Virus record (IMG/VR): IMGVR_UViG_3300022660_000062
Span: 1-64,000 of that record
DNA: 64,000 bases
DNA from: a virus
Lineage: Duplodnaviria > Heunggongvirae > Uroviricota > Caudoviricetes
Strand: one strand, 5' to 3'
Numbering within the stretch: the first letter of the stretch is position 1; every line of letters starts with the position of its first letter. A program made the translations under genes and the position numbers. Shown piece after piece: positions 13,317-26,312 of this stretch. Under the pieces are notes generated by a model. It saw only the letters and a program-made list of their open reading frames with translations. It ran no database searches and was not told the origin of the DNA.

Positions 13317-13453
13317 GGCCCAATGGTGGAATTGGTAGACACAAGGGACTTGTTGGATGCCAGTGCTAATCGAGTAGGGGCAGCACCTACATCCGACACC
13401 AAAAATCCCTCGCTGGAGACAGCGTACCGGTTCGAGTCCGGTTTGGGCCACCA
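13317..13453 (+). tRNA. tRNA-Leu-like gene (inferred anticodon TAA) carrying a ~50-nt insertion in the anticodon loop
   Basis: Acceptor GGCCCAA/TTGGGCC is a perfect match, with Leu-type D-arm GTGGAATTGGTAGACAC and variable-arm hairpin CGCTGGAGACAGCG. T-arm is ACCGG-TTCGAGT-CCGGT, discriminator A, CCA encoded. Anticodon stem halves AGGGA (13344-13348) and TCCCT (13406-13410) are separated by 57 nt. Removing 13352-13401 restores a CTTAAAA loop. Confidence 0.5.
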
Positions 13454-15927: not shown

Positions 15928-17598
15928 ATGACCTGTATGAGCAAATTGTCTAATGCAGCAATGGAAATGCGTGAAGAGGCAACTCTGCGCAGAGACGAAA
16001 CCGTCGTCAATTTTATGGGTGGTGACTCTTATGTTATCAACCCTCTGGACACCTTGAAGATGATTACCGCGTCTTCTATTTATGGTGAGCCTTCCTATTA
16101 TCGGGATAGTGCTAGCGCAAAGAAGACTTGCGGTAAATACACTCTGGATAGTCGGTATGTTACTGACTCTGTTATTCCTTCCGAGTATGAAGGTAAGCAG
16201 ACCAATGTGGTTATGGAGGAGGCAATTGATGCCGCTCTGAACTACGATTTTGCAGGAACTTTGCAGTGGGCAATTGAATTGCGTAATGAGTTCAATATGC
16301 GCTTGAATCCTCAGGTAATCATGGTTCGGGCTGCCCTGCATCCGAAGCGTGCTGAGTTTACTGCAGCAAATCCTGGTGAGTTTGATAAGATCAATCAGCA
16401 GGTGATGTCTCGTGCCGATGAGCCGATGACTCAGATGGCTTACTACTTGTACAAGAACAAGGGCAAGAAGAACAACATTCCTTCTGTTATTAAGCGCTCT
16501 TGGGCAACTAAGCTGAGTAAGCTCGGCAGATATCCTGTTGCTAAGTACAAGAATCATGAAATCGGCATGATCAATGCGGTTCGTTTGTGTCATGCAAACT
16601 CAGCTGTCATTGATGAACTGATGACTTCTGGCACTGTTGAGGTGTCTGAAGATAAGAAGACTTGGGAGAATCTTCGCTCCGAAGGCAAGTCTTGGAAGGA
16701 AATTTTCCAGACTGTTGATATGGGTCACATGGCTCTACTTCGTAACCTGCGCGGTGTATTCAGCGAGGTAGACGATGTAGCATTCTGTAAGGAATATCTG
16801 GATAAGCTGAAGGCTGGTGTTCTTACCGGCAAACAGTTCCCGTTCCGTTACTATGCAGCAATGAATGCTGTTAACAGCAGTAGCAAGTGCAATCATCGTT
16901 CTATGATCATTGATGCTCTGGAGGAGTGCTTTGACATTGCTCTTGAGAACTATCCTAAGTTAAAGGGCAAGACGATGTGTCTGTCTGATAACTCCGGGTC
17001 TGCTTGGGGCACAATGAACTCTGAGTATGGCACTGTTACAATTGCAGAAATTGACAACTTGTCTTCCGTTATTACTGCAGCTTGCTCCGAAGATGGTTAT
17101 GTTGGTGAATTTGGTGACAGACTCATTGTTCATCCTGTTAGCAAGCGTCAGGGCGTCCTGAATCAAGCCAAGCAGATCTCTATGGATCGCGGTCGTAAGG
17201 TTGGTGGTTCCACCGAGGGTGGTATCTGGGAGTTCTTCTACAATGCTATCCAGAACAAGGAACATTGGGATAACATCTTCATCTACTCTGACCAGCAAGC
17301 AGGCCATGGTGGTTTGTATGGTACTTCCACTCAGTCTGCTAAGTACTCCAAGGCAGGATTCGGCTGCGGTAGTGCATGGGGTGGCAACTACATCAACGTG
17401 TATAAGTTGATCCTGGAGTACCGTAAGAAGGTTAATCCTCATGTTAACGTCTTCTCTATTCAGACTGCAGGTTATGATAACATTGTAATTCCTGAAATGG
17501 CTTATCGTACTGCTATTCAGTATGGTTGGACCGGCAAGGAAGCGGTGTTTGCCTCTGAATACATTCGTCAGTGGAATGACATTGAAAACCGTAACTAA
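15928..17598 (+). CDS. rsr: Ro60 (Rsr) homolog: TROVE domain + vWA domain with MIDAS motif
   Basis: N-terminal TROVE signature NFMGGDSYVINPLDTLKMITASSIYGEPSYY; C-terminal vWA with MIDAS-like DNSGSAWG; AAGGAG RBS. The minus-strand ORF 15910-16593 is an antisense artefact. Confidence 0.85.
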   Translation: MTCMSKLSNAAMEMREEATLRRDETVVNFMGGDSYVINPLDTLKMITASSIYGEPSYYRDSASAKKTCGKYTLDSRYVTDSVIPSEYEGKQTNVVMEEAIDAALNYDFAGTLQWAIELRNEFNMRLNPQVIMVRAALHPKRAEFTAANPGEFDKINQQVMSRADEPMTQMAYYLYKNKGKKNNIPSVIKRSWATKLSKLGRYPVAKYKNHEIGMINAVRLCHANSAVIDELMTSGTVEVSEDKKTWENLRSEGKSWKEIFQTVDMGHMALLRNLRGVFSEVDDVAFCKEYLDKLKAGVLTGKQFPFRYYAAMNAVNSSSKCNHRSMIIDALEECFDIALENYPKLKGKTMCLSDNSGSAWGTMNSEYGTVTIAEIDNLSSVITAACSEDGYVGEFGDRLIVHPVSKRQGVLNQAKQISMDRGRKVGGSTEGGIWEFFYNAIQNKEHWDNIFIYSDQQAGHGGLYGTSTQSAKYSKAGFGCGSAWGGNYINVYKLILEYRKKVNPHVNVFSIQTAGYDNIVIPEMAYRTAIQYGWTGKEAVFASEYIRQWNDIENRN

Positions 17599-17769
17599 CT
17601 AAAGTAGATGGCTGAAGCGGCCGTAACAGTTCCTTCAAAAATAACATCTTACATACTCTACAAATGTTTTCTTTTGAACTCTTTTATAACTTCACCTCCT
17701 GTTATAAATCCATTTTTTCAAACTGTTACATTTCATTCTCAGCCTTTACATAGATAAACTAGATACTAC

Positions 17770-18005
17770 GATTGTTGATGCAGTTGGTCCAGTTACTTCG
17801 GATAATAAATTTTACTGTCAAACAAAATTTTAGTTGGTTCAAATCCAACAACGTCTATTGCGGGCGTAAGTGCTTATGCTGGAACAGTATTTCTCAACAA
17901 TCTTTGAAAACATAGTTTGCTGATGCAGCTGAAAGAGTTACTTCAAATTTGACTGTTAATCAAAAACTTGAGACCACATATCTCTTTCCTTTATTCTCAG
18001 CTTCT
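17770..18005 (+). ncRNA. Structured RNA elements B and C sharing the GATGCAG-N6-(C/G)AGTTACTTC motif
   Basis: Motif copies at 17777-17801 and 17922-17948. Copy B is followed by a perfect T-arm-like hairpin GTTGG-TTCAAAT-CCAAC (17836-17852). Long-range complementarity between GCAGCTGA (17927-17934) and TCAGCTTC (17996-18003). No ORF. Confidence 0.3.
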
Positions 18006-18026
18006 ATATAACAATAAAATATCATT

Positions 18027-18175
18027 TGTGATGCAGTCGAATCAGTTACTTCTTGCTTAGGGAGCACGGGGTCGTGGGTTCGAGTCCCACCTGTTCGTTT
18101 AAGCAGCGACAGTAGCTCAGTCGGGAGAGCACGTACAATAGTATTCACTGGTTCATTTATTCTCACAAATTGTTA
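18027..18175 (+). ncRNA. Y-RNA-like candidate (copy D) with circularly permuted tRNA-like module immediately downstream of the Ro60 homolog
   Basis: Motif GATGCAGTCGAATCAGTTACTTC is followed by a T-arm GTGGG-TTCGAGT-CCCAC and an acceptor-like hairpin CTGT(T)CG-TTTAAGCAG-CGACAG. Then come TA and a canonical D-arm GCTCAGTCGGGAGAGC. Outer helices ATTTGTGA/TCACAAAT and GAATCAGT/ACTGGTTC enclose the module. Confidence 0.45.
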
Positions 18176-18279
18176 TTGTATAATATATCATATGTTTCGA
18201 TGCGGTAGTTCGAGATACTTCAACATTGTTTTTCTGGATGTACTTAAGACCTTGAACAATTGTTCTCGAAACATCTTAT

Positions 18280-18357
18280 GGGCCCGTAGCTCAGTTTTGG
18301 GAGAGCATCTGATTTGCACTCAGAAGGTCAGGAGTTCGAGCCTCCTCGGGTCCACCA
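18280..18357 (+). tRNA. tRNA-Ala (anticodon TGC)
   Basis: Acceptor GGGCCCG/CGGGTCC with the G3:U70 Ala identity pair, anticodon loop TTTGCAC, T-arm AGGAG-TTCGAGC-CTCCT, discriminator A, CCA encoded. Preceded by a long imperfect hairpin (18196-18278) that carries a fifth motif variant, GATGCGGTAGTTCGAGATACTTC. Confidence 0.9.
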
Positions 18358-18656
18358 GCTTACTCGAGTAAGACGCTTGTCAGTCAAGTGGTGGAACATC
18401 TGATGGTTGACGCTGTAAAAGTTAAATGCGTTCGAGTGCGGAGCGAAGGTTGGTCGCCGCATAAACATAAATTGTATATAAAGATATAAGATATTATGAA
18501 AGGGTTATGCGCCATGTTTGAACTTAGATTTGAACTCAATATGGATAATGGTGGATACCCTCATTATGATATTTTTAACAATCGTTGTGAAAGAATAACA
18601 TCACATGTATTGCGAATAACTTGAATGTACAGTATATATAACTGATCAGCATTGAG

Positions 18657-18688
18657 TGTTCGCAAGAATATTCAATGCTTTTATTTTT
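18657..18688 (+). terminator. Rho-independent terminator
   Basis: CAGCATTGAGTGTTCGCAAGAATATTCAATGCT followed by TTTATTTTT. Confidence 0.55.
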
Positions 18689-18741
18689 AGTTGATAATTC
18701 CTTGTGCATATTATAACATATGTATATAGAATAATAGATAT

Positions 18742-18817
18742 TCCCCTATAGCTCAGTTGGTAGAGCGGCGGACTGTTAATCCGTGTGTCGCAGGTTCGAG
18801 CCCTGCTGGGGGAGCCA
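18742..18817 (+). tRNA. tRNA-Asn (anticodon GTT)
   Basis: Acceptor TCCCCTA/TGGGGGA, D-arm GCTCAGTTGGTAGAGC, anticodon stem GCGGA/TCCGT with loop CTGTTAA, T-arm GCAGG-TTCGAGC-CCTGC, CCA encoded. Confidence 0.85.
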
Positions 18818-18926
18818 TAAATCACGGTTTAGTTTAAGTGTAAAACATCCGAATCCCAGGAACAAGACCACATTTAATTATGTGAAGATATGTAAGGTCA
18901 AGACTTACAGCCGTGTCCAAAAATAA

Positions 18927-19013
18927 GGGTCGGTAGAGCGTAGTTGGTACCGCACCGGACTGTAAATCCGGTCCTTATTGGCAGCGCTGGTTCGAGTCCA
19001 GCCCGGCCCACCA
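18927..19013 (+). tRNA. tRNA-Tyr (anticodon GTA)
   Basis: Acceptor GGGTCGG/CCGGCCC, anticodon stem CCGGA/TCCGG with loop CTGTAAA, about 14-nt variable region, T-arm GCTGG-TTCGAGT-CCAGC, discriminator A, CCA encoded. Confidence 0.8.
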
Positions 19014-19155
19014 ATGCTTACTTTGATGAAGATGAATGTAGTCAAGTAGAAAACTTATGCCTAAGTGTACAGTTGATCATCCGGCTGTGCAGGGACAGGA
19101 TAAAACGTCGGGGAAGTTTAGATTAGTGTCACCTGTCATCCTACTTAATATATTT

Positions 19156-19233
19156 CCGGGTGTAGCTCAGTTTGGCTAGAGCGCGTGATTTGGGATCACG
19201 AGGCCGCGAGTTCGAGTCTCGCCACTCGGACCA
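19156..19233 (+). tRNA. tRNA-Pro (anticodon TGG)
   Basis: Acceptor CCGGGTG/CACTCGG, D-arm GCTCAGTTTGGCTAGAGC, anticodon stem CGTGA/TCACG with loop TTTGGGA, T-arm GCGAG-TTCGAGT-CTCGC, CCA encoded. Confidence 0.85.
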
Positions 19234-19236
19234 CAT

Positions 19237-19311
19237 GTCGTCATCATACAGCGGTTAGTATGCCAGACTGTCTCTCTGGTCACAGGGGTTCGAGTCCCCT
19301 TGACGGCGCCA
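19237..19311 (+). tRNA. tRNA-Asp (anticodon GTC)
   Basis: Acceptor GTCGTCA/TGACGGC, D-stem ATAC/GTAT, anticodon stem CCAGA/TCTGG with loop CTGTCTC, T-arm AGGGG-TTCGAGT-CCCCT, discriminator G, CCA encoded. Confidence 0.85.
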
Positions 19312-19689
19312 TTCTTTCATTATTGAGGAAACATTATGGCACTTGGTTTTAGTGATTTACTTGAGTCTATTGAAGATGCATCTGAAAGTTATGATTCTGG
19401 CTGTTCTCTTTTAGCAACTTCAGATGATCTTGAATATACAAATTCGACAAGTGACAAACATGATTCTTCTTGCTCTTTATTAAATCCAACAGATTGAGGT
19501 AACTAAGAGATGACTCAGTTTCAATTTGATATGATCTGTAAGATTATTCAGAATGGTGCTCCTGTTCTTGCAAATGAACTTTGTGGTGCATTGAATGATC
19601 TTGTTGTTGATTATAACAAACTAGTTGAGCGAATACAGAGTATTCAGGAAACAGATGTTGAATCTAAGGATGAAAATCCTTCCTGATAT

Positions 19690-19784
19690 GCTCCCGTAGC
19701 TCAATTGGTAGAGCGGCGGATTTATACTCCGTTTAGCACCAGATTAGTGCAAGGTTCTCGGTTCGAGTCCGAGTGGGAGTACCA
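19690..19784 (+). tRNA. tRNA with anticodon TAT (AUA-decoding, Ile-like) carrying a ~19-nt hairpin insertion between anticodon stem and variable loop
   Basis: Type-I body: acceptor GCTCCCG/TGGGAGT (GU pairs at both ends), D-arm GCTCAATTGGTAGAGC, anticodon stem GCGGA/TCCGT with loop TTTATAC. An extra TTAGCACCAGATTAGTGCA sits before AGGTT. T-arm CTCGG-TTCGAGT-CCGAG, CCA encoded. Confidence 0.5.
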
Positions 19785-19804
19785 CTCAATCTGATAACTA
19801 GGAG

Positions 19805-20089
19805 TTGATTTACTTGAGTTCTGAAAAGAAGTGCTCTGGAGTACAGCGCATAACATATGAGGAGTTTGATAAACTACATACAAAGCAGCTGATAGCTATG
19901 CGACATACGGTAACTGATCCTTATTTCTGTGATTATATTTGTCCTGGCTGTTGTGCAAGGTATGAATGTGAAGCAGCTCGAGAACATAATTATAAAACTC
20001 TTAGAGAGGTTCTTGCTACAAGACCTCATGTGCTTAACAAACAAGAAAGTAAAGCACTTCGTAAACAGCGCAAGAAACAAGGTAAATAA
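19805..20089 (+). CDS. Hypothetical Cys-rich protein (TTG start)
   Basis: ORF with CTAGGAG RBS; CDYICPGCCARYEC motif. Confidence 0.5.
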   Translation: MIYLSSEKKCSGVQRITYEEFDKLHTKQLIAMRHTVTDPYFCDYICPGCCARYECEAAREHNYKTLREVLATRPHVLNKQESKALRKQRKKQGK

Positions 20090-20209
20090 GTTGATACGGG
20101 CAGTTAAGTATGTTTACGATATAGCTTGTTTAGCTCATGACTGTACTAGCGTATGTGTAAAAACTTAGTCGGTGCGCAACGATGTTCTTCGGACGCTGTC
20201 CTTTGATTT

Positions 20210-20284
20210 GCCTCAGTCGCCAAGCGGTAAGGCACGGTCTTCATACGGCCGCTATCGTAAGTTCAAATCTTACCTGAGGCACCA
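20210..20284 (+). tRNA. tRNA with anticodon CAT (Met/Ile2 type), 3-bp D-stem
   Basis: Acceptor GCCTCAG/CTGAGGC, D-arm GCCAAGCGGTAAGGC, anticodon stem CGGTC/GGCCG with loop TTCATAC, T-arm GTAAG-TTCAAAT-CTTAC, CCA encoded. Confidence 0.8.
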
Positions 20285-20298
20285 AGAGGAGATAACTA

Positions 20299-20559
20299 AT
20301 GGTTGGTCAGAATTATACTTTTACAATGACTCCTGAAGAATACCATCTATATGAACAATGGTGCAAAGAAAATCATCTGGATGAATATTCAGGGGCAGCT
20401 GGTGGTAATGTGGGGTTTGAAATTATTCCTACATCACTTGGAGAAATTGTAACAGTTTTTGCTCATATTGTTGTTCGTGATGAACTTGGTGAAGTCAGTC
20501 ATGATAAGAATGGCGTTCCTAAGAGAAAGCGGATTGAATATGTGCTTCGTGATATCTAA
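20299..20559 (+). CDS. Hypothetical small protein
   Basis: ORF with AAGAGGAG RBS. Confidence 0.5.
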   Translation: MVGQNYTFTMTPEEYHLYEQWCKENHLDEYSGAAGGNVGFEIIPTSLGEIVTVFAHIVVRDELGEVSHDKNGVPKRKRIEYVLRDI

Positions 20560-20572
20560 TATGCTTCCGTAG

Positions 20573-20639
20573 CTCAGTTGGCTAGAGCACCTGACTCTTA
20601 ATCAGGGTGTCCTCGGTTCGAACCCGAGCGGGAGTACCA
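20573..20639 (+). tRNA. tRNA-Lys (anticodon CTT)
   Basis: Acceptor GCTTCCG/CGGGAGT, D-arm GCTCAGTTGGCTAGAGC, anticodon stem CCTGA/TCAGG with loop CTCTTAA, T-arm CTCGG-TTCGAAC-CCGAG, CCA encoded. Confidence 0.85.
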
Positions 20640-20645
20640 ATACAT

Positions 20646-20724
20646 ACATCCGTAGCTCAGTAGGAATTAGAGCGCTTGACTACGAATCAAGAGGTCGTGG
20701 GTTCGAGTCCAGCCGAGGACACCA
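20646..20724 (+). tRNA. tRNA-Arg (anticodon ACG)-like gene with non-complementary acceptor stem (probable pseudogene or chimeric 3' end)
   Basis: All arms have canonical lengths. The 5' acceptor ACATCCG resembles E. coli tRNA-Arg GCATCCG, with D-arm GCTCAGTAGGAATTAGAGC and anticodon stem CTTGA/TCAAG around loop CTACGAA. The 3' acceptor CGAGGAC cannot pair with the 5' strand, and the T-stem GTGGG/CCAGC has one mismatch. Confidence 0.5.
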
Positions 20725-20761
20725 AAACTTGTATATGATTTCATATAGAATTATATAGAGG

Positions 20762-21139
20762 TTGAATATGAAATTCAAACGTGTAAATGATATTGATGAG
20801 CGATTTACTAACGAGTATAGTAAAAAGGATCATCACTCTCGACATGTTGTTAAGAATCGAGAATATCCACCCATAACAGAAACAGAGTATGAAGCAATTG
20901 CGGACAAGCTTGCTCTCACACCTGTAGATCACAGAACTATCTTCGGTTATCAAACAACTGCTCCTGAAGGTGACTCAAGAGTTCGGTATGCAAAGTATAA
21001 CAAGGAAACCGGTGATTTTGTTGTATACGGATACAAAGGCTCGGAGCCAATGATTATATCTTTACACAAGAAAACATGGCGCCAATTCAATACTGATATG
21101 ACTGTTAAATATCAGGATGAAATTCCTGCAGGAAAATAA
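20762..21139 (+). CDS. Hypothetical protein
   Basis: ORF with AGAGGT RBS. Confidence 0.55.
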   Translation: MNMKFKRVNDIDERFTNEYSKKDHHSRHVVKNREYPPITETEYEAIADKLALTPVDHRTIFGYQTTAPEGDSRVRYAKYNKETGDFVVYGYKGSEPMIISLHKKTWRQFNTDMTVKYQDEIPAGK

Positions 21140-21199
21140 GTTGAATTATTTCCATACATATATTATAATTGTAGTATAATAATTGTGGAGGGAATAGTT

Positions 21200-21415
21200 A
21201 TGAAGAGAATCAACGAAGTTCTTGCTCAGGATATCATAGATGAACAGATTGCCTCAGGATATCAGTTGACAGTGTGTCCTGTTTGTGGTAATGAGACTTT
21301 TGATGATTATTCCATCTGCCCGCACTGTGGTTGGGAACAGGACGGAACAGTTGATCTAGATCAGTATTCTTCTGCAAATGGTTCCTCCATTCATGAATAT
21401 AGAAAATCCTTGTAA
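21200..21415 (+). CDS. Hypothetical zinc-ribbon protein (CPVCG...CPHCG)
   Basis: GGAGGGA RBS before the ATG at 21200. Confidence 0.5.
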   Translation: MKRINEVLAQDIIDEQIASGYQLTVCPVCGNETFDDYSICPHCGWEQDGTVDLDQYSSANGSSIHEYRKSL

Positions 21416-21463
21416 ATTTACACGATTTCAATGATTTTCCTTGTATACATTATATGTAAATAT

Positions 21464-21541
21464 TGCAGAGTAGAGAAGTGGCCTATCTCGCAAGCCTCAT
21501 AAGCTTGAGACCGTTGGTTCGAATCCAACCTCTTGCAACCA
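21464..21541 (+). tRNA. Third CAT-anticodon tRNA (irregular acceptor; candidate initiator/Met/Ile2 member)
   Basis: Acceptor TGCAGAG/TCTTGCA (one A-C mismatch, extra C after the T-stem), D-stem GAGA/TCTC, anticodon stem CAAGC/GCTTG with loop CTCATAA, T-arm GTTGG-TTCGAAT-CCAAC, CCA encoded. Confidence 0.55.
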
Positions 21542-21800
21542 TAAATCAGATGCTATTTGGTAGTAAAAGTACGATGCCGAAAGGTAAGAAAATAGCTATG
21601 TCCATTTCTTGCGACCTTTTAATGGTGAAGATATAGTGGTCTTCACGAATGGATGTCCTGCTTGGAGAATCGGGAGTGCAGGAGTAGCATCATAAGACCA
21701 CATCGGGAAGTATCCTCACGCTATATCACAAGACGGTATGGGATGACTTAATAGAAAGTAGAGGCTAGTGGTGTCTTTGTGTTTCGCTTCCCGCTCATTT

Positions 21801-21836
21801 GCCGGTATAGCTCAGTTGGTAGAGCAGCTGATTTGA
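21801..21836 (+). pseudogene. tRNA 5' fragment (acceptor, D-arm, 5' anticodon stem) truncated at insertion point of homing-endonuclease gene
   Basis: GCCGGTA-TA-GCTCAGTTGGTAGAGC-A-GCTGATTTG runs directly into ATTGTATATAAATATGC (junction-like motif) and then the ORF at 21881. No matching 3' half (TACCGGC) is found downstream. Confidence 0.6.
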
Positions 21837-21880
21837 TTATTGTATATAAATATGCATAAGTAATAATGGAGCATATTTAT

Positions 21881-22564
21881 ATGAGCGAAGAAACTAAGTT
21901 TCAGTGTGAATACTGTAATAAAATATGCAAAAATGCTAATAGTTTAGCACAGCATCAGATAAGATGTTCTTCAAATCCAAATAGAATTCACTCTTCCTTT
22001 GTTGCTGGTTTTAATACAAAAGGAAGACAAGCTTGGAATACTGGGCGTACAAAAGAAACAGATGAGCGTGTGGCAAAACAAGCGGAACAACAACGCAAGT
22101 TTTATGAAACACATCCTGGAACATTTACAGGAAAGACTCATACTGAAACATATAAGTTAATGATGAGTGAACTTGCTCATGAACGAGGCCTTGGTGGGTT
22201 CAATATGAGAAGCAAGGGCATTCATTATCATGGATCAAAATTAGATTCAACTTATGAGCTAGCTGTTGCTCAGTCTCTTGATGAAAACAGTATTGTTTGG
22301 GAGAGACCAAAATCATTTACATATGTTGGATTTGATAACAAACAACATAGATATGTCCCTGATTTCTATCTTCCAGATTATGACATTTATCTTGATCCGA
22401 AAAATGATTTTCTAATCAACAATGTTAATCCTGGTCTTGGTTACAATGACTGTGACAAGATTAAACTTGTTGAACATCAGTTGGGAATTAGAGTCTTAAT
22501 TCTTGATTCAGAGCATCTTACATGGGACAAGATAAAATCTAAGATTGATGCCGAAGTCCCATAG
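21881..22564 (+). CDS. Homing-endonuclease-like protein (C2HC zinc finger + NUMOD3-like + PD-(D/E)XK-like domain)
   Basis: Motifs CEYCNKICKNANSLAQHQIRC, FTGKTHTETYKLMMSELAHERGLGG, and STYELAVAQSL...YVPDFYLPDYDIYLDPKNDF. GGAG RBS before the ATG at 21881. The 3' end (stop at 22562-22564) overlaps the first 15 nt of the tRNA at 22550. Confidence 0.7.
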   Translation: MSEETKFQCEYCNKICKNANSLAQHQIRCSSNPNRIHSSFVAGFNTKGRQAWNTGRTKETDERVAKQAEQQRKFYETHPGTFTGKTHTETYKLMMSELAHERGLGGFNMRSKGIHYHGSKLDSTYELAVAQSLDENSIVWERPKSFTYVGFDNKQHRYVPDFYLPDYDIYLDPKNDFLINNVNPGLGYNDCDKIKLVEHQLGIRVLILDSEHLTWDKIKSKIDAEVP

Positions 22565-22635
22565 CGGCCGATTGGACCGGATTTGTAACCCGGTGGCTCC
22601 TGCCCGCGTCGGTTCGAATCCGACCTTCGGCTCCA
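22550..22635 (+). tRNA. tRNA-like gene with long variable region; anticodon loop TTTGTAA (TGT?), identity uncertain
   Basis: Perfect acceptor GCCGAAG/CTTCGGC, 3-bp D-stem CCA/TGG, anticodon stem CCGGA/CCCGG with a terminal A-C mismatch, 14-nt variable region, T-arm GTCGG-TTCGAAT-CCGAC, discriminator T, CCA encoded. Confidence 0.5.
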
Positions 22636-22648
22636 TAAAAATTGAATC

Positions 22649-22676
22649 TTGACAAGTGCATAGTAAAATATATAAT
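22649..22676 (+). promoter_or_regulatory. Strong consensus sigma-A promoter (TTGACA-16-TATAAT) driving a noncoding region
   Basis: CTTGACAAGTGCATAGTAAAATATATAATC. Confidence 0.6.
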
Positions 22677-22677
22677 C

Positions 22678-23430
22678 ATTGACAACTCAGTGCAGAACGA
22701 ATACCATCGTGCTGAGAACTCGATCCTGCCTGCGGGCGCCTGGAATGCGAAAAACATTCACGAACGATAGCTTGTGATAGCTAGAGGGTTTATGGAGTGA
22801 TTCATAGATTCCGCCTCTGAACTGAGGTCCAGGATGGAAGGGTGTGCTGACATAGTTGTAATCAAAGATACCGTCTTATCGCTCCCACAATAGACAGCTT
22901 GGTTAACAGCCGAGCCGAATCCAAGTTAGGTATTAGCTGGTGACTGTTACAAACCTTGGAAAGACCAACAAGGAAGTTTGCGTTGATCCCTCAGCAATGA
23001 GGAGTATAAGATAAGGTCGGAGGTGCGAGTAGCTCAAACGCAGTCGACTTAAGATGAAAAAATGCTATAAAGAGCTTGTAGATAGTAATAGAAAGTTACT
23101 AATATCAAATTTCTGAATGGCGAGTGAAAGTTGCAAGTAATCAGTCTTGTACAGGAATTATAATGGAGAACGGTGAGTGAGCCTTAAGGTCAAGCCGATG
23201 GCTCCTCAAGGAAGTTGGAAGGCTTCTGGGGCAAGAAGTTTATAGTGGACGCATTGTAAGCTCAGACTTGTCTCCCTGTTGATCGAATATGGTTGAAGGC
23301 TAAACAGTTGGTAAGGCGAAGGCCTGTTGATGAACTTATATATTTTACTATGTGCTTGTCGTGCGTTTTCATTCCTCCTTTCGTGATAACGAGCTTGTCG
23401 ATTATTCGGCGAGCTCGTTATTTGTTTGTT
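22678..23430 (+). ncRNA. About 750-nt promoter-to-terminator transcript with no credible ORF (unclassified structured RNA)
   Basis: It lies between the consensus promoter at 22649-22676 and the terminator at 23388-23430. GC is locally elevated with many short hairpins (CCTCTGAACTGAGG, GGCGCC, AGTCGACT). Only spurious short or antisense ORFs are present. Confidence 0.35.
23388..23430 (+). terminator. Rho-independent terminator
   Basis: AACGAGCTTGTCGATTATTCGGCGAGCTCGTT followed by ATTTGTTTGTTT. Confidence 0.55.
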
Positions 23431-24812: not shown

Positions 24813-26312
24813 ATGTTAACTTATCTTATCCCCGCAGCGGTAGTCGTTGCCTTGCTGATTCTGTTGTTTATTACAGGTTATGTCAAGTCACCCCCTGATA
24901 CCGCTTATCTTATCAGTGGTGTTCGGAAGAAAACTGTCATTGGTAAGGCTGCTCTGAAGATTCCCTTCTTTGAGCGAATTGACAAGCTGACTCTAAAGTT
25001 GATTCCTATTGATGTGAAGACTTCAAGCACAGTTCCTACTGCAGATTACATTGACATCAGTGTTGATGCAATCGTAAACGTCAAGATTTCAAGTAAGCCT
25101 GAACTGCTTGCTCTGGCTGCTGAAAACTTCCTAAATCAGCCGATGGATTACATTGCTCGTGTTGCTAGAGAAGTGCTGGAAGGCAACATGCGTGAAATTG
25201 TTGGTCAGATGAAGTTGGAAGAGATGGTTACTGACCGTCAGCTGTTCTCAGAAAAGGTTAAGCAGAATGCTGCTCCCGATCTGGCTGCAATGGGTCTTGA
25301 AATCGTTGCATTCAATGTTCAGAATTTCGACGATCGCAACGGCGTAATTGAGAATCTGGGTGTTGACAATGTTGAGCAGATTCGTAAAAAGGCTGCTATC
25401 GCAAAGGCTGATGCTCACAAGGAAATTGCAATTGCCGAAGCAAATGCAAGTAAGGATGCAAATGATGCTCAGGTAGCATCCGATCTGGAGATTGCTCGTA
25501 AGCGGAATGAGCTTGCTTTGGAGCAGGCTGAACTTCAGAAGAAGGCTGACATCAAGTGGGCAGAAACCGAAGCTGCAAAGGGCATTCAGGCTGAGGAACA
25601 GCGTAAGATTCTTGAGATTTCTACTGCAAATGCAAATCTGGCTAAGCAGGAGAAGGAGATTGAGCTGAAAGCTCGTGAGGTTGAGATTACTGAGCGTAGA
25701 CTGGAAGCAGAAGTCAAGAAGACTGCTGATGCAAAGAAGTACGCAGCTCAGCAGGAAGCAGATGCTAAGTTGTATGCCACTCAGAAGCAAGCTGATGCAG
25801 ATCTCTTTAAGCGTCAGCGTGAAGCAGAAGCTGAGAAGTTCGAAGCAGAACAGAAGGCTGAAGCAACAAAGGCTGCATCTGATGCTCAGAAGGTTGCTAT
25901 GGAAAATGAGGCAGCAGGTATTGCAGCAAAAGGTCGTGCTGAAGCTGAAGCAATTCGAGCAAAAGCCGAAGCCGAAGCAGCTGGTATTCTGAAGAAGGCA
26001 GAAGCAATGGAACGCTATGGTGAAGCTGCAAAGATGGACATGCAGCTCCAGGCTCTCAAGGTTTACTTTGAGCAGCTTCCTGCAATGGCTCAGGCAATCG
26101 GTGAAGGCTATCAGGGTGTTGACAAGATTGTCATGATGGGATCTGATTCCAATCAGCTGGCAAACAACATCATGAATACTACCACTCAGTTGAGTGAGGG
26201 TATGGCAGCAAGCCTCGGAATTGATCTGAAGACTCTGCTGGCTGGTGTGCTGGGACACACTATCGGTAGTAAGTCAAGCTGCGACTGCGGCGGCAACTGC
26301 CACGAAAAGTAA
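24813..26312 (+). CDS. Flotillin-like protein (SPFH/band-7 domain + EA-rich coiled coil; FloT/YuaG family)
   Basis: N-terminal TM helix and SPFH domain (...YLISGVRKKTVIGKAALKIPFFERIDKLTLKLIPIDV...VDAIVNVKI...), then a long Ala/Glu/Lys-rich coiled coil. The minus-strand ORF 25248-26258 is an antisense artefact. Confidence 0.8.
   Translation: MLTYLIPAAVVVALLILLFITGYVKSPPDTAYLISGVRKKTVIGKAALKIPFFERIDKLTLKLIPIDVKTSSTVPTADYIDISVDAIVNVKISSKPELLALAAENFLNQPMDYIARVAREVLEGNMREIVGQMKLEEMVTDRQLFSEKVKQNAAPDLAAMGLEIVAFNVQNFDDRNGVIENLGVDNVEQIRKKAAIAKADAHKEIAIAEANASKDANDAQVASDLEIARKRNELALEQAELQKKADIKWAETEAAKGIQAEEQRKILEISTANANLAKQEKEIELKAREVEITERRLEAEVKKTADAKKYAAQQEADAKLYATQKQADADLFKRQREAEAEKFEAEQKAEATKAASDAQKVAMENEAAGIAAKGRAEAEAIRAKAEAEAAGILKKAEAMERYGEAAKMDMQLQALKVYFEQLPAMAQAIGEGYQGVDKIVMMGSDSNQLANNIMNTTTQLSEGMAASLGIDLKTLLAGVLGHTIGSKSSCDCGGNCHEK

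Follow-up and report, generated by a model that had tools for sequence, protein, structure and literature searches.

The window analysed here is a stretch of 64,000 nucleotides (nt) from a virus of the Caudoviricetes (positions 1 to 64,000 of the IMG/VR record IMGVR_UViG_3300022660_000062). It is part of a large phage, with all long open reading frames (ORFs) on the plus strand, and its first 23 kb contain 21-23 tRNA genes followed by a ROOL RNA. We consider here one gene of this array, a tRNA-Ile with the anticodon UAU whose variable region contains a base-paired extra arm, along with the family of arm-bearing tRNAs to which it belongs. ARAGORN predicted the gene as tRNA-Ile(tat), 95 nt with the encoded CCA, on the plus strand at 19690..19784; the tRNA model of Rfam (RF00005) matched 19690..19781 with 58.7 bits, the gathering score being 29. 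The parts of the gene and the other features mentioned in the text are listed in Table 1.

Table 1. Parts of the tRNA-Ile(UAU) gene and other features discussed in the text. Positions are those of the window unless preceded by an L number, which refers to another sequence of the collection.
Feature	Position	Strand	Remarks
Whole tRNA-Ile(UAU) gene	19690..19784	+	95 nt; A73 at 19781, CCA at 19782..19784; from ARAGORN, Rfam and the sequence
Acceptor stem, 5' strand GCUCCCG	19690..19696	+	Partner UGGGAGU at 19774..19780; C4-G69 included
U8, A9, D arm and G26	19697..19715	+	4-bp stem GCUC/GAGC, 8-nt loop AAUUGGUA; U12-A23 present
Anticodon arm GCGGA-UUUAUAC-UCCGU	19716..19732	+	Anticodon UAU at 19723..19725; A37, C38
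Variable region UUA-GCAC-CAGAUUA-GUGC-AAGGUU	19733..19756	+	24 nt; 5' linker UUA, hairpin, 3' linker AAGGUU
Extra-arm hairpin	19736..19750	+	15 nt; stem GCAC 19736..19739 / GUGC 19747..19750, loop 19740..19746
Extra-arm loop CAGAUUA	19740..19746	+	7 nt; family consensus YAGAUWA
T arm CUCGG-UUCGAGU-CCGAG	19757..19773	+	From the sequence, ARAGORN and the family alignment
Anticodon-changed members with CAGAUWA arm (Pyrinomonadaceae)	L210:7859-7950, L238:1236-1331		GAU twice and UCU once over these two and the next row
Third anticodon-changed member with CAGAUWA arm (Rhodocyclaceae)	L223:170-261		
tRNA-Leu(UAA) with precise 50-nt insertion between U34 and A35	13317..13453	+	Orthologs without insertion: L005:9080-9166, L009:9082-9167
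tRNA-Trp(CCA)	2697..2788	+	92 nt; A1-U72, G73; identical copy at L268:1..~95 (-), one IMG/VR contig
Class I tRNAs with expanded variable arms	22550..22635; L011:1512-1608, L013:2048-2144, L003:3577-3662, L076:2260-2346, L019:881-965	+ (window gene)	
tRNA-like gene with 6-nt anticodon loop	12054..12131	+	ARAGORN gives a 2-base "anticodon"; Rfam only 33 bits
Partial tRNA match	20651..20715	+	39 bits, model positions 6-65; directly after tRNA-Lys(CUU); no ARAGORN call
Ro60/TROVE-like protein	15928..17598	+	Weak Pfam match; PF05731 precomputed for many of 3771 homologs
ORF-free stretch after the Ro-like gene	17600..18280		Three copies of a TGATGCAG...AGTTACTTC motif
YrlA (Y RNA-like) match	18039..18157		Full-length, sub-threshold: 30.5 bits, gathering score 69, E = 0.0026
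ROOL RNA, full-length	22662..23344	+	RF03087, 281.9 bits, gathering score 99.1; directly after tRNA-Thr(UGU), at the end of the tRNA array
SPFH/Band 7 (flotillin-like) protein	24813..26312	+	499 aa; just past the tRNA/ROOL region

The gene begins 2 nt past the stop codon of the upstream ORF. Its acceptor stem includes the pairs G1.U72 and G7.U66, and the 3' linker of the variable region resembles the usual variable loop of class I tRNAs and contains a conserved G. Folding by minimum free energy gave the cloverleaf with the extra hairpin (-32 kcal/mol, z = -2.1 against shuffled sequences); that the hairpin is more than a chance feature follows from its conservation and covariation in relatives. 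An original prediction, made from the letters of the window, had named a UAU tRNA at this place with a class I-type body, a 4-bp D stem and an extra hairpin in the variable region. The first was confirmed by ARAGORN and RF00005, the second by the sequence and by the comparison of masked bodies given below, the third by sequence, fold and conservation. The same prediction counted a 19-nt hairpin, a 5-nt variable loop AGGUU and a length of 92 nt without CCA; the structure is the same, and what differs is the description used here, a 24-nt variable region in a gene of 95 nt with CCA.

Relatives of the window phage were found by a protein search for homologs of the Ro-like protein (Table 1), followed by contig look-ups. 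One of them, the 174-kb contig L005, encodes a Ro-like protein 94% identical to that of the window phage. In L005 and in L015, both close relatives, ARAGORN found orthologous tRNA-Ile(UAU) genes of 95 and 96 nt, respectively. The original prediction had proposed comparison with orthologs in related phages as a check on its view of the hairpin as an insertion; the comparison speaks against that view, since both close relatives keep the arm and its stem in L005 has changed from GCAC/GUGC to GCGC/GCGC (an A-U pair replaced by G-C, thus a compensatory change) with the loop CAGAUUA identical. The UAU tRNAs of the more distant relatives L011 and L013 are unrelated and lack the arm. An exact pattern built on the anticodon stem of the window tRNA itself gave zero matches in IMG/VR, and so did a search of IMG/VR for loci related to the neighbouring Ro-like protein. 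Megablast of positions 18000..23000 against deposited phages returned just two short tRNA matches, and therefore the window phage has no close isolated relative.

The family was delineated by pattern scans. In an unbiased scan of IMG/VR the only fixed elements were a D-arm word, the anticodon loop with UAU and the beginning of the T arm; the variable region was free to vary from 3 to ~31 nt. The 81 UAU tRNAs found in this way had a bimodal distribution of length: 36 were of 72-78 nt and 45 of 89-96 nt. With the loop left unconstrained, a short stem closing a YAGAUWR loop was present in 29 of 32 distinct long-arm UAU tRNAs. Four IMG/VR pattern matches measured by ARAGORN were all of 92-96 nt. 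The family is large: in total, 143 distinct sequences were collected, their sources being phage contigs of IMG/VR, isolated phages, plasmids and the chromosomes of bacteria. The window tRNA has every feature by which members were recognized (anticodon UAU, A73, a class I body, an arm stem of 3-5 bp, a 7-nt YAGAUWA loop and a 3' linker containing G), and taken alone the window gene is unremarkable among them; what is of interest is the family as such, together with the testable idea of a remedy borne by the tRNA, discussed below.

The carriers are diverse. Arm-bearing tRNA-Ile(UAU) genes occur on uncultured phage contigs of widely differing size in IMG/VR and in isolated phages, namely about forty Vibrio phages (genus Thalassavirus), Vibrio phage henriette 12B8, Aeromonas phage 1233 and Acinetobacter phage qsb1. 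In Vibrio phage Thalassa the gene is found at MG649967 78904..78996. Plasmid carriers include conjugative and mobilizable plasmids of Xanthomonas, among them pXCV19/pXCV183 of Xanthomonas euvesicatoria 85-10, and megaplasmids of Alteromonas. Solitary chromosomal copies were seen in Xanthomonas (in one case with a Mob_Pre relaxase nearby), Stenotrophomonas, Pseudoxanthomonas, Microbulbifer, Marinobacter and several alphaproteobacteria, and large tRNA arrays of Pyrinomonadaceae, Acidithiobacillus and others also include the gene; the chromosomal members, in mobile elements and tRNA arrays, are spread over many phyla. None was found in 5,426 E. coli genomes. Next to the solitary chromosomal copies we observed no partner gene common to different phyla, the sole recurrent neighbour being specific to Xanthomonadaceae. 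The arm-bearing tRNA-Ile(UAU) is a cargo of mobile elements in general.

Conservation of the arm was assessed in two ways. Pairing was counted on the 143 distinct sequences anchored on the arm loop, hence independently of pairing itself. The three stem pairs next to the loop were paired in 100, 99 and 93% of the sequences, with 4-5 pair types each, while in a control with the partner slid by one or two positions the pairing was 2-66%. The fourth level was paired in 41%, and pairing there is restored in a large subgroup if one G of the 3' strand is taken as bulged; the length of the stem across the family is 3-5 bp. Secondly, the window tRNA and 50 other diverse members were aligned full length and in register by MAFFT. 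In this 51-sequence alignment 97% of cells were paired, and the covariation score was reached by none of 500 shuffles. Two-sided changes were observed at all four arm pairs, all seven acceptor pairs and all five anticodon-stem pairs; the D stem was invariant, though part of it had been fixed by the search pattern itself. These observations show that the arm is under selection as RNA. The arm loop is nearly constant (YAGAUWA) across the family. Since the stems have diverged freely while the loop has stayed constant, the comparison of sequences points to sequence-specific recognition of the loop. The same body of evidence does not support the original description of the hairpin as an unusual insertion: it recurs in 143 distinct sequences, with a covarying stem, a near-invariant loop and a link to the UAU anticodon.

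This link was established in second scans, with the arm loop fixed (CAGATWA) and the anticodon left free, done on IMG/VR and then on one genome per bacterial species. Among the IMG/VR matches listed, the anticodon was UAU in 122 of 122 tRNAs and in one further, incomplete copy, the other pattern matches not being tRNA genes. The bacterial genomes yielded 69 tRNAs: 66 with UAU, two with GAU and one with UCU. No compensating change was seen in the arm loop of the three anticodon-changed tRNAs. The D-arm word of the pattern is found in more than 20 other anticodon types at the same loci, most often in tRNA-Ile(GAU), and therefore the exclusivity is not an artefact of the pattern. The arm is almost exclusive to the UAU anticodon.

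A base-paired arm in the variable region is shared with the class II tRNAs (Leu, Ser, bacterial Tyr and Sec), and the 24-nt variable region with its 4-bp stem falls within what is expected of class II (a stem-loop of at least 10 nt). The body, however, does not: the D stem has 4 bp, while the D stems of class II tRNAs have 3 bp, the discriminator is A73 rather than the G73 of tRNA-Ser, position 35 is A, unlike the G34-U35 of tRNA-Tyr, and the geometry of the arm is different. In the family the arm has a mean of 22.6 nt, with a loop of 7-8 nt of fixed sequence and long linkers (2.8 and 4.4 nt on average), whereas the Leu, Ser and Tyr arms at the same loci have 14-18 nt, 4-nt loops not conserved in sequence and linkers of ~1 nt. 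With the acceptor stem, anticodon and variable region masked, the body most resembled class I tRNAs that read ANN codons (nearest groups: Lys, Arg-UCU, Phe, Val, Asn, Thr, Ile-GAU and Met/Ile2); mean identity to the class I ANN-codon groups was 0.60-0.63, versus 0.47-0.57 to the Leu, Ser and Tyr groups. Judged from its sequence, the molecule is a class I tRNA with an added arm and not a class II tRNA with a changed anticodon. The original prediction connected retention of the insert in the mature RNA with a known class II isotype; the arm is probably retained, but the tRNA is not a tRNA-Leu, tRNA-Ser or tRNA-Tyr.

As to the amino acid, the determinants described for E. coli isoleucyl-tRNA synthetase (IleRS) are A73, G34 or lysidine-34, A35, U36, A37 (as N6-threonylcarbamoyladenosine, t6A), A38, C4-G69, U12-A23 and C29-G41 (PMC9976931). 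The window tRNA has A73; it has A35 and U36, but U34; A37 is present and position 38 is C; C4-G69 and U12-A23 are present and the 29-41 pair is G-C. In the family A73 was found in 80 of 81 members, with CCA mostly encoded; U12-A23 is invariant, and C5-G68, G27.U43, C4-G69 and C29-G41 occur in 57, 56, 49 and 10 of the 81 members, respectively. C5-G68, G27.U43 and C4-G69 are features of tRNA-Ile2. The commonest 2-71 pair is C2-G71. The anticodon arm has an A31.C39 mismatch in 20 of 81 members, and position 38 is mostly C or U. A38, a determinant for E. coli IleRS (PMC9976931), is present in 14 of 81 long-arm UAU tRNAs versus 17 of 27 arm-less ones, which mostly keep A37-A38 in the loop UUUAUAA (Fisher p = 1.6e-5, uncorrected for relatedness). 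Some members have G37 instead of A37 (loop UUUAUGC): the ortholog in L005 (L005:13600-13694) and three other distinct sequences (e.g. L097, L135, L154). G37 is unexpected in a tRNA for a codon starting with A, where t6A37 is usual.

The sequence of the arm loop resembles an anticodon loop. Its G-A-U-W-A occupies places equivalent to anticodon-loop positions 34-38, and the family variant CAGAUAA differs from the anticodon loop of tRNA-Ile(GAU), CUGAUAA, only in having A in place of U33. Among the anticodon loops of 1477 distinct tRNAs, CAGAUAA is at Hamming distance 1 solely from those of tRNA-Ile(GAU), and the loop of the window tRNA, CAGAUUA, is at distance 1-2 solely from the same loops. We tried to separate mimicry of the anticodon from mimicry of the codon (self-pairing); the two proved inseparable, because within the arm loop GAU shares letters with AUA/AUU, and arm loop and anticodon loop alike are near-invariant. 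We also considered the GAU-centred arm loop as a general module. The candidate was the tRNA-Trp(CCA) of the window, in which the variable arm is shaped like a whole anticodon arm, with a 5-bp stem and the 7-nt loop CUGAUCA (U33 followed by G-A-U); this loop recurs only in one identical copy and the idea was rejected. The relatives L011 and L013 have a normal tRNA-Trp of 74 nt.

Taken together, it seems likely that the gene encodes a TilS-independent AUA decoder of a widespread mobile lineage, most probably charged with isoleucine, with the arm kept in the mature tRNA. The tRNA would read the isoleucine codon AUA as an elongator by means of an unmodified-type UAU anticodon, and such an anticodon would make it independent of TilS, the lysidine enzyme of the host. 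It would be charged with isoleucine by the host IleRS, and the arm would act as a sequence-specific recognition element built into the tRNA rather than as an intron. The supply of an AUA-decoding tRNA to the phage, as supposed in the original prediction, is plausible; AUA makes up 7.3 per 1000 codons, or 11% of isoleucine codons, in the window phage.

Several other explanations have to be weighed. The hairpin could be an intervening sequence or a recent insertion, tolerated or removed at maturation, as the original prediction had it. An intact-looking 5-nt variable loop does adjoin the hairpin, a true insertion of 50 nt is present in the anticodon loop of the tRNA-Leu(UAA) of the same window, and assorted expanded variable arms exist on other class I tRNAs of these phages. 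Still, the arm is found in 143 distinct sequences over unrelated mobile elements, and the hairpin (15 nt, stem of 4 bp) is placed beyond the 3' end of the anticodon stem, hence outside the anticodon loop, in which tRNA introns are located (34/35 or 37/38). It is far too small for a group I intron, with its self-splicing fold of hundreds of nt, has neither a bulge-helix-bulge motif nor any other known feature of a tRNA intron, and no intron family was matched in Rfam; no bacterial pathway is known for excision and religation within the variable region of a tRNA. Excision is very unlikely because the hairpin is outside the anticodon loop, lacks intron-like features and, unlike introns, is conserved. 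The parallel with tRNA-Leu, drawn in the original prediction, does not hold either: the Leu insertion sits between U34 and A35 and is missing from the orthologs in L005 and L009, while the Ile arm is kept in close relatives. The tRNA-Leu insertion is recent and lineage-specific, and shares with the old Ile arm only the lengthening of the gene. Its 50 nt can form a long hairpin; the U34/A35 site is that of the cyanobacterial tRNA-Leu group I intron, for which 50 nt is far too short. We regard the insertion explanation as highly improbable. AUA might instead be reassigned, in the manner of nev- and allo-tRNAs, if the long arm made the tRNA a substrate of leucyl- or seryl-tRNA synthetase (LeuRS or SerRS), with AUA then read as leucine or serine. 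The window tRNA can form an A15-U48 pair, which is linked to LeuRS, and in this it resembles tRNA-Leu. The nematode nev-tRNA-Ile(UAU), charged with leucine, is like the family in its long variable arm, UAU and A73 (PMC3333845), and UAU is the predominant anticodon among allo-tRNAs (PMC5389517). However, nev-tRNAs are eukaryotic and Leu-like in their D and variable arms (PMC3333845), whereas the family is the opposite, with a 4-bp D stem, a body nearer to class I tRNAs than to the co-resident tRNA-Leu, tRNA-Ser and tRNA-Tyr, and an arm unlike theirs in shape and loop. In allo-tRNA(UAU) species the acceptor and T stems are of 8/4 or 9/3 bp, the D stem is long and closed by a tetraloop, and the discriminator is G73 or U73, which points to serine identity (PMC5389517). 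The window tRNA, with 7/5 stems in which every pair has the support of covariation, a 4-bp D stem with an 8-nt loop and A73 (rather than the G73 of tRNA-Ser), is not of this kind. The resemblance to tRNA-Ile2 at C4-G69, C5-G68 and G27.U43 also argues against reassignment, as does the commonest pair C2-G71, reported as an anti-SerRS element in the context of E. coli tRNA-Leu (PMC9976931). We consider such a reassignment quite unlikely.

Nor does the tRNA have to act in translation at all: it could be a tRNA-like RNA that serves as decoy or sponge for a tRNA-targeting toxin or nuclease of the host, it could be a regulator, or it could mask itself, AUAA or AUUA of the arm loop pairing with U33-U36 in the anticodon loop of its own or another copy. 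Many kinds of mobile element carry the gene, the loop holds the cognate codon AUA or the isoleucine codon AUU followed by A, and certain allo-tRNA(UAU) species have been considered unused in translation (PMC5389517). What makes a role outside translation unlikely is the fully canonical cloverleaf, in which all stems covary, the discriminator is A73, the CCA is encoded and the T and D loops are canonical, as well as the location of the gene within tRNA arrays of otherwise standard decoders; moreover, the arm loop of the three anticodon-changed tRNAs has no compensating change. A fourth explanation leaves the tRNA as an AUA decoder accepting isoleucine and places the action of the arm in decoding, where it might stiffen the hinge or block the U34-modifying enzymes of the host, so that AUA and not AUG is read. 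UAU tRNA binds AUG as well as AUA on E. coli ribosomes (PMC3575796), the arm is linked to the UAU anticodon and protrudes from the hinge that joins the core to the anticodon stem, and the anticodon loop is itself odd, with C or U at position 38 and the A31.C39 mismatch in a part of the family. Yet a steric or stiffening role alone leaves unexplained why the loop is near-invariant over a freely diverged stem and body, and no docking partner for the loop was identified; we see this as a possible explanation, though a doubtful one.

We return to the reading of the gene as a TilS-independent decoder charged with isoleucine, and to what the arm may do in it. E. coli IleRS charges UAU tRNA-Ile poorly unless its Trp905 is replaced by Arg or Lys, and the few species with UAU tRNAs had a changed IleRS and, in M. 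mobile, apparently a changed ribosome (PMC3575796). A mobile element cannot alter the IleRS or the ribosome of its host, and therefore a remedy must sit in the tRNA; the arm, being near-exclusive to the UAU anticodon, is thus a natural candidate for such a remedy. Our tentative preference is that the arm loop is a mimic of the anticodon loop (GAU) in the major tRNA-Ile and assists IleRS in binding or accepting the tRNA; the long single-stranded linkers would allow the arm to swing. In its most specific form, which we put forward with considerable reserve, the arm would be a portable isoleucine-identity module, the G34-A35-U36-N37-A38 signature on a tethered hairpin letting a Trp-type IleRS charge the tRNA. 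Next most likely after the preferred mechanism, and also rather uncertain, is that the arm stiffens or shields the hinge and the anticodon region, limiting U34 modification or misreading of AUG.

A number of points weigh against this reading. The arm loop is an imperfect mimic of the anticodon loop: at 33' it has A, seldom G and in no case U, and about half of the members have U at 37'. The codons AUA or AUU can also be read in the loop, and the match to GAU could be a by-product of another constraint. We infer isoleucine identity from the anticodon, A73 and partial identity elements elsewhere in the sequence, and U34, C38 and G29-C41 deviate from the determinants of E. coli IleRS. IleRS, a class I synthetase, is expected to approach the tRNA opposite the variable region, therefore the arm could be read directly only if it swung round or the tRNA took up an alternative conformation. 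Arm-less tRNAs made up 36 of the 81 UAU tRNAs in the unbiased IMG/VR scan, thus the arm is not obligatory. Finally, every scan of the collections required the D-arm word GGTAGAGC, and the members collected are those with such a D arm.

With respect to other known systems, chromosomal UAU tRNA-Ile species are ordinary tRNAs of ~76 nt with a short variable loop, and their partners are an IleRS with a basic residue at the wobble-reading site (Arg865 in M. mobile, where E. coli has Trp905) and, in M. mobile, an adapted ribosome; hosts such as Vibrio and Xanthomonas have TilS. The family is like these species in UAU, A73 and, as we suppose, TilS-free AUA decoding (PMC3575796, PMC8450103), and differs in having a variable region of 20-25 nt with a conserved hairpin and in residing on mobile elements. 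Likewise, T4 tRNA-Ile and the arm-less UAU tRNAs of phages are comparable as a phage-borne supply of a tRNA for a rare codon, but lack the extra arm. Searches of full-text literature, most subscription journals being outside the coverage, gave no account of the arm, of the conserved loop or of the linkage to UAU, and the arm-bearing family is apparently undescribed. Already known are UAU tRNA-Ile species, phage AUA decoders and long variable arms as such, and members of the family are public as plain tRNA-Ile, the label used in the records of the isolated phages. The genes are thus rightly named tRNA-Ile(UAU), with the structural oddity unflagged.

The surroundings of the gene have features of their own. 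The Ro-like gene, the repeat-containing stretch without ORFs that follows it and the YrlA match look like a phage Ro/Y-RNA module within the tRNA array. The expanded class I tRNAs listed in Table 1 have lengths of 86 (Thr), 97 (Gln), 84-86 (Met), 87 (Gly) and 85 nt (Asn); the sequences of their arms, several with GAAA-type loops, are unrelated, and phage tRNAs seem to be generally permissive for expansion of the variable arm. The tRNA-like gene with a 6-nt anticodon loop is kept in place in close relatives (L009:7983-8059, L015:6793-6869). At the place of the partial tRNA match L005 has a tRNA-Arg(ACG), and the match may represent a degraded or unusual tRNA. A homolog of the flotillin-like protein is similarly placed in L013.

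AUA is the hardest codon for bacteria, most of which rely on the essential TilS to convert a CAU anticodon. The family is a concrete candidate for a fix borne by the tRNA itself, combining a UAU anticodon with an anticodon-linked arm that copies the loop of tRNA-Ile(GAU). It is testable in existing material, as carriers include isolated Vibrio phages (Thalassa and relatives) and Xanthomonas plasmids. Should the arm prove to be kept and to have a function, bacteria would have one more kind of long-arm tRNA besides those for Leu, Ser, Tyr and Sec, a source of identity or decoding fidelity would be shown to lie outside the anticodon, and engineers would have at hand an AUA decoder that is orthogonal or independent of the host. 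If the proposed identity module is real, a natural tRNA would for the first time be seen to owe its synthetase identity to a second, non-decoding mimic of an anticodon, and mobile elements would have a TilS-independent AUA decoder that they can carry into almost any bacterium.

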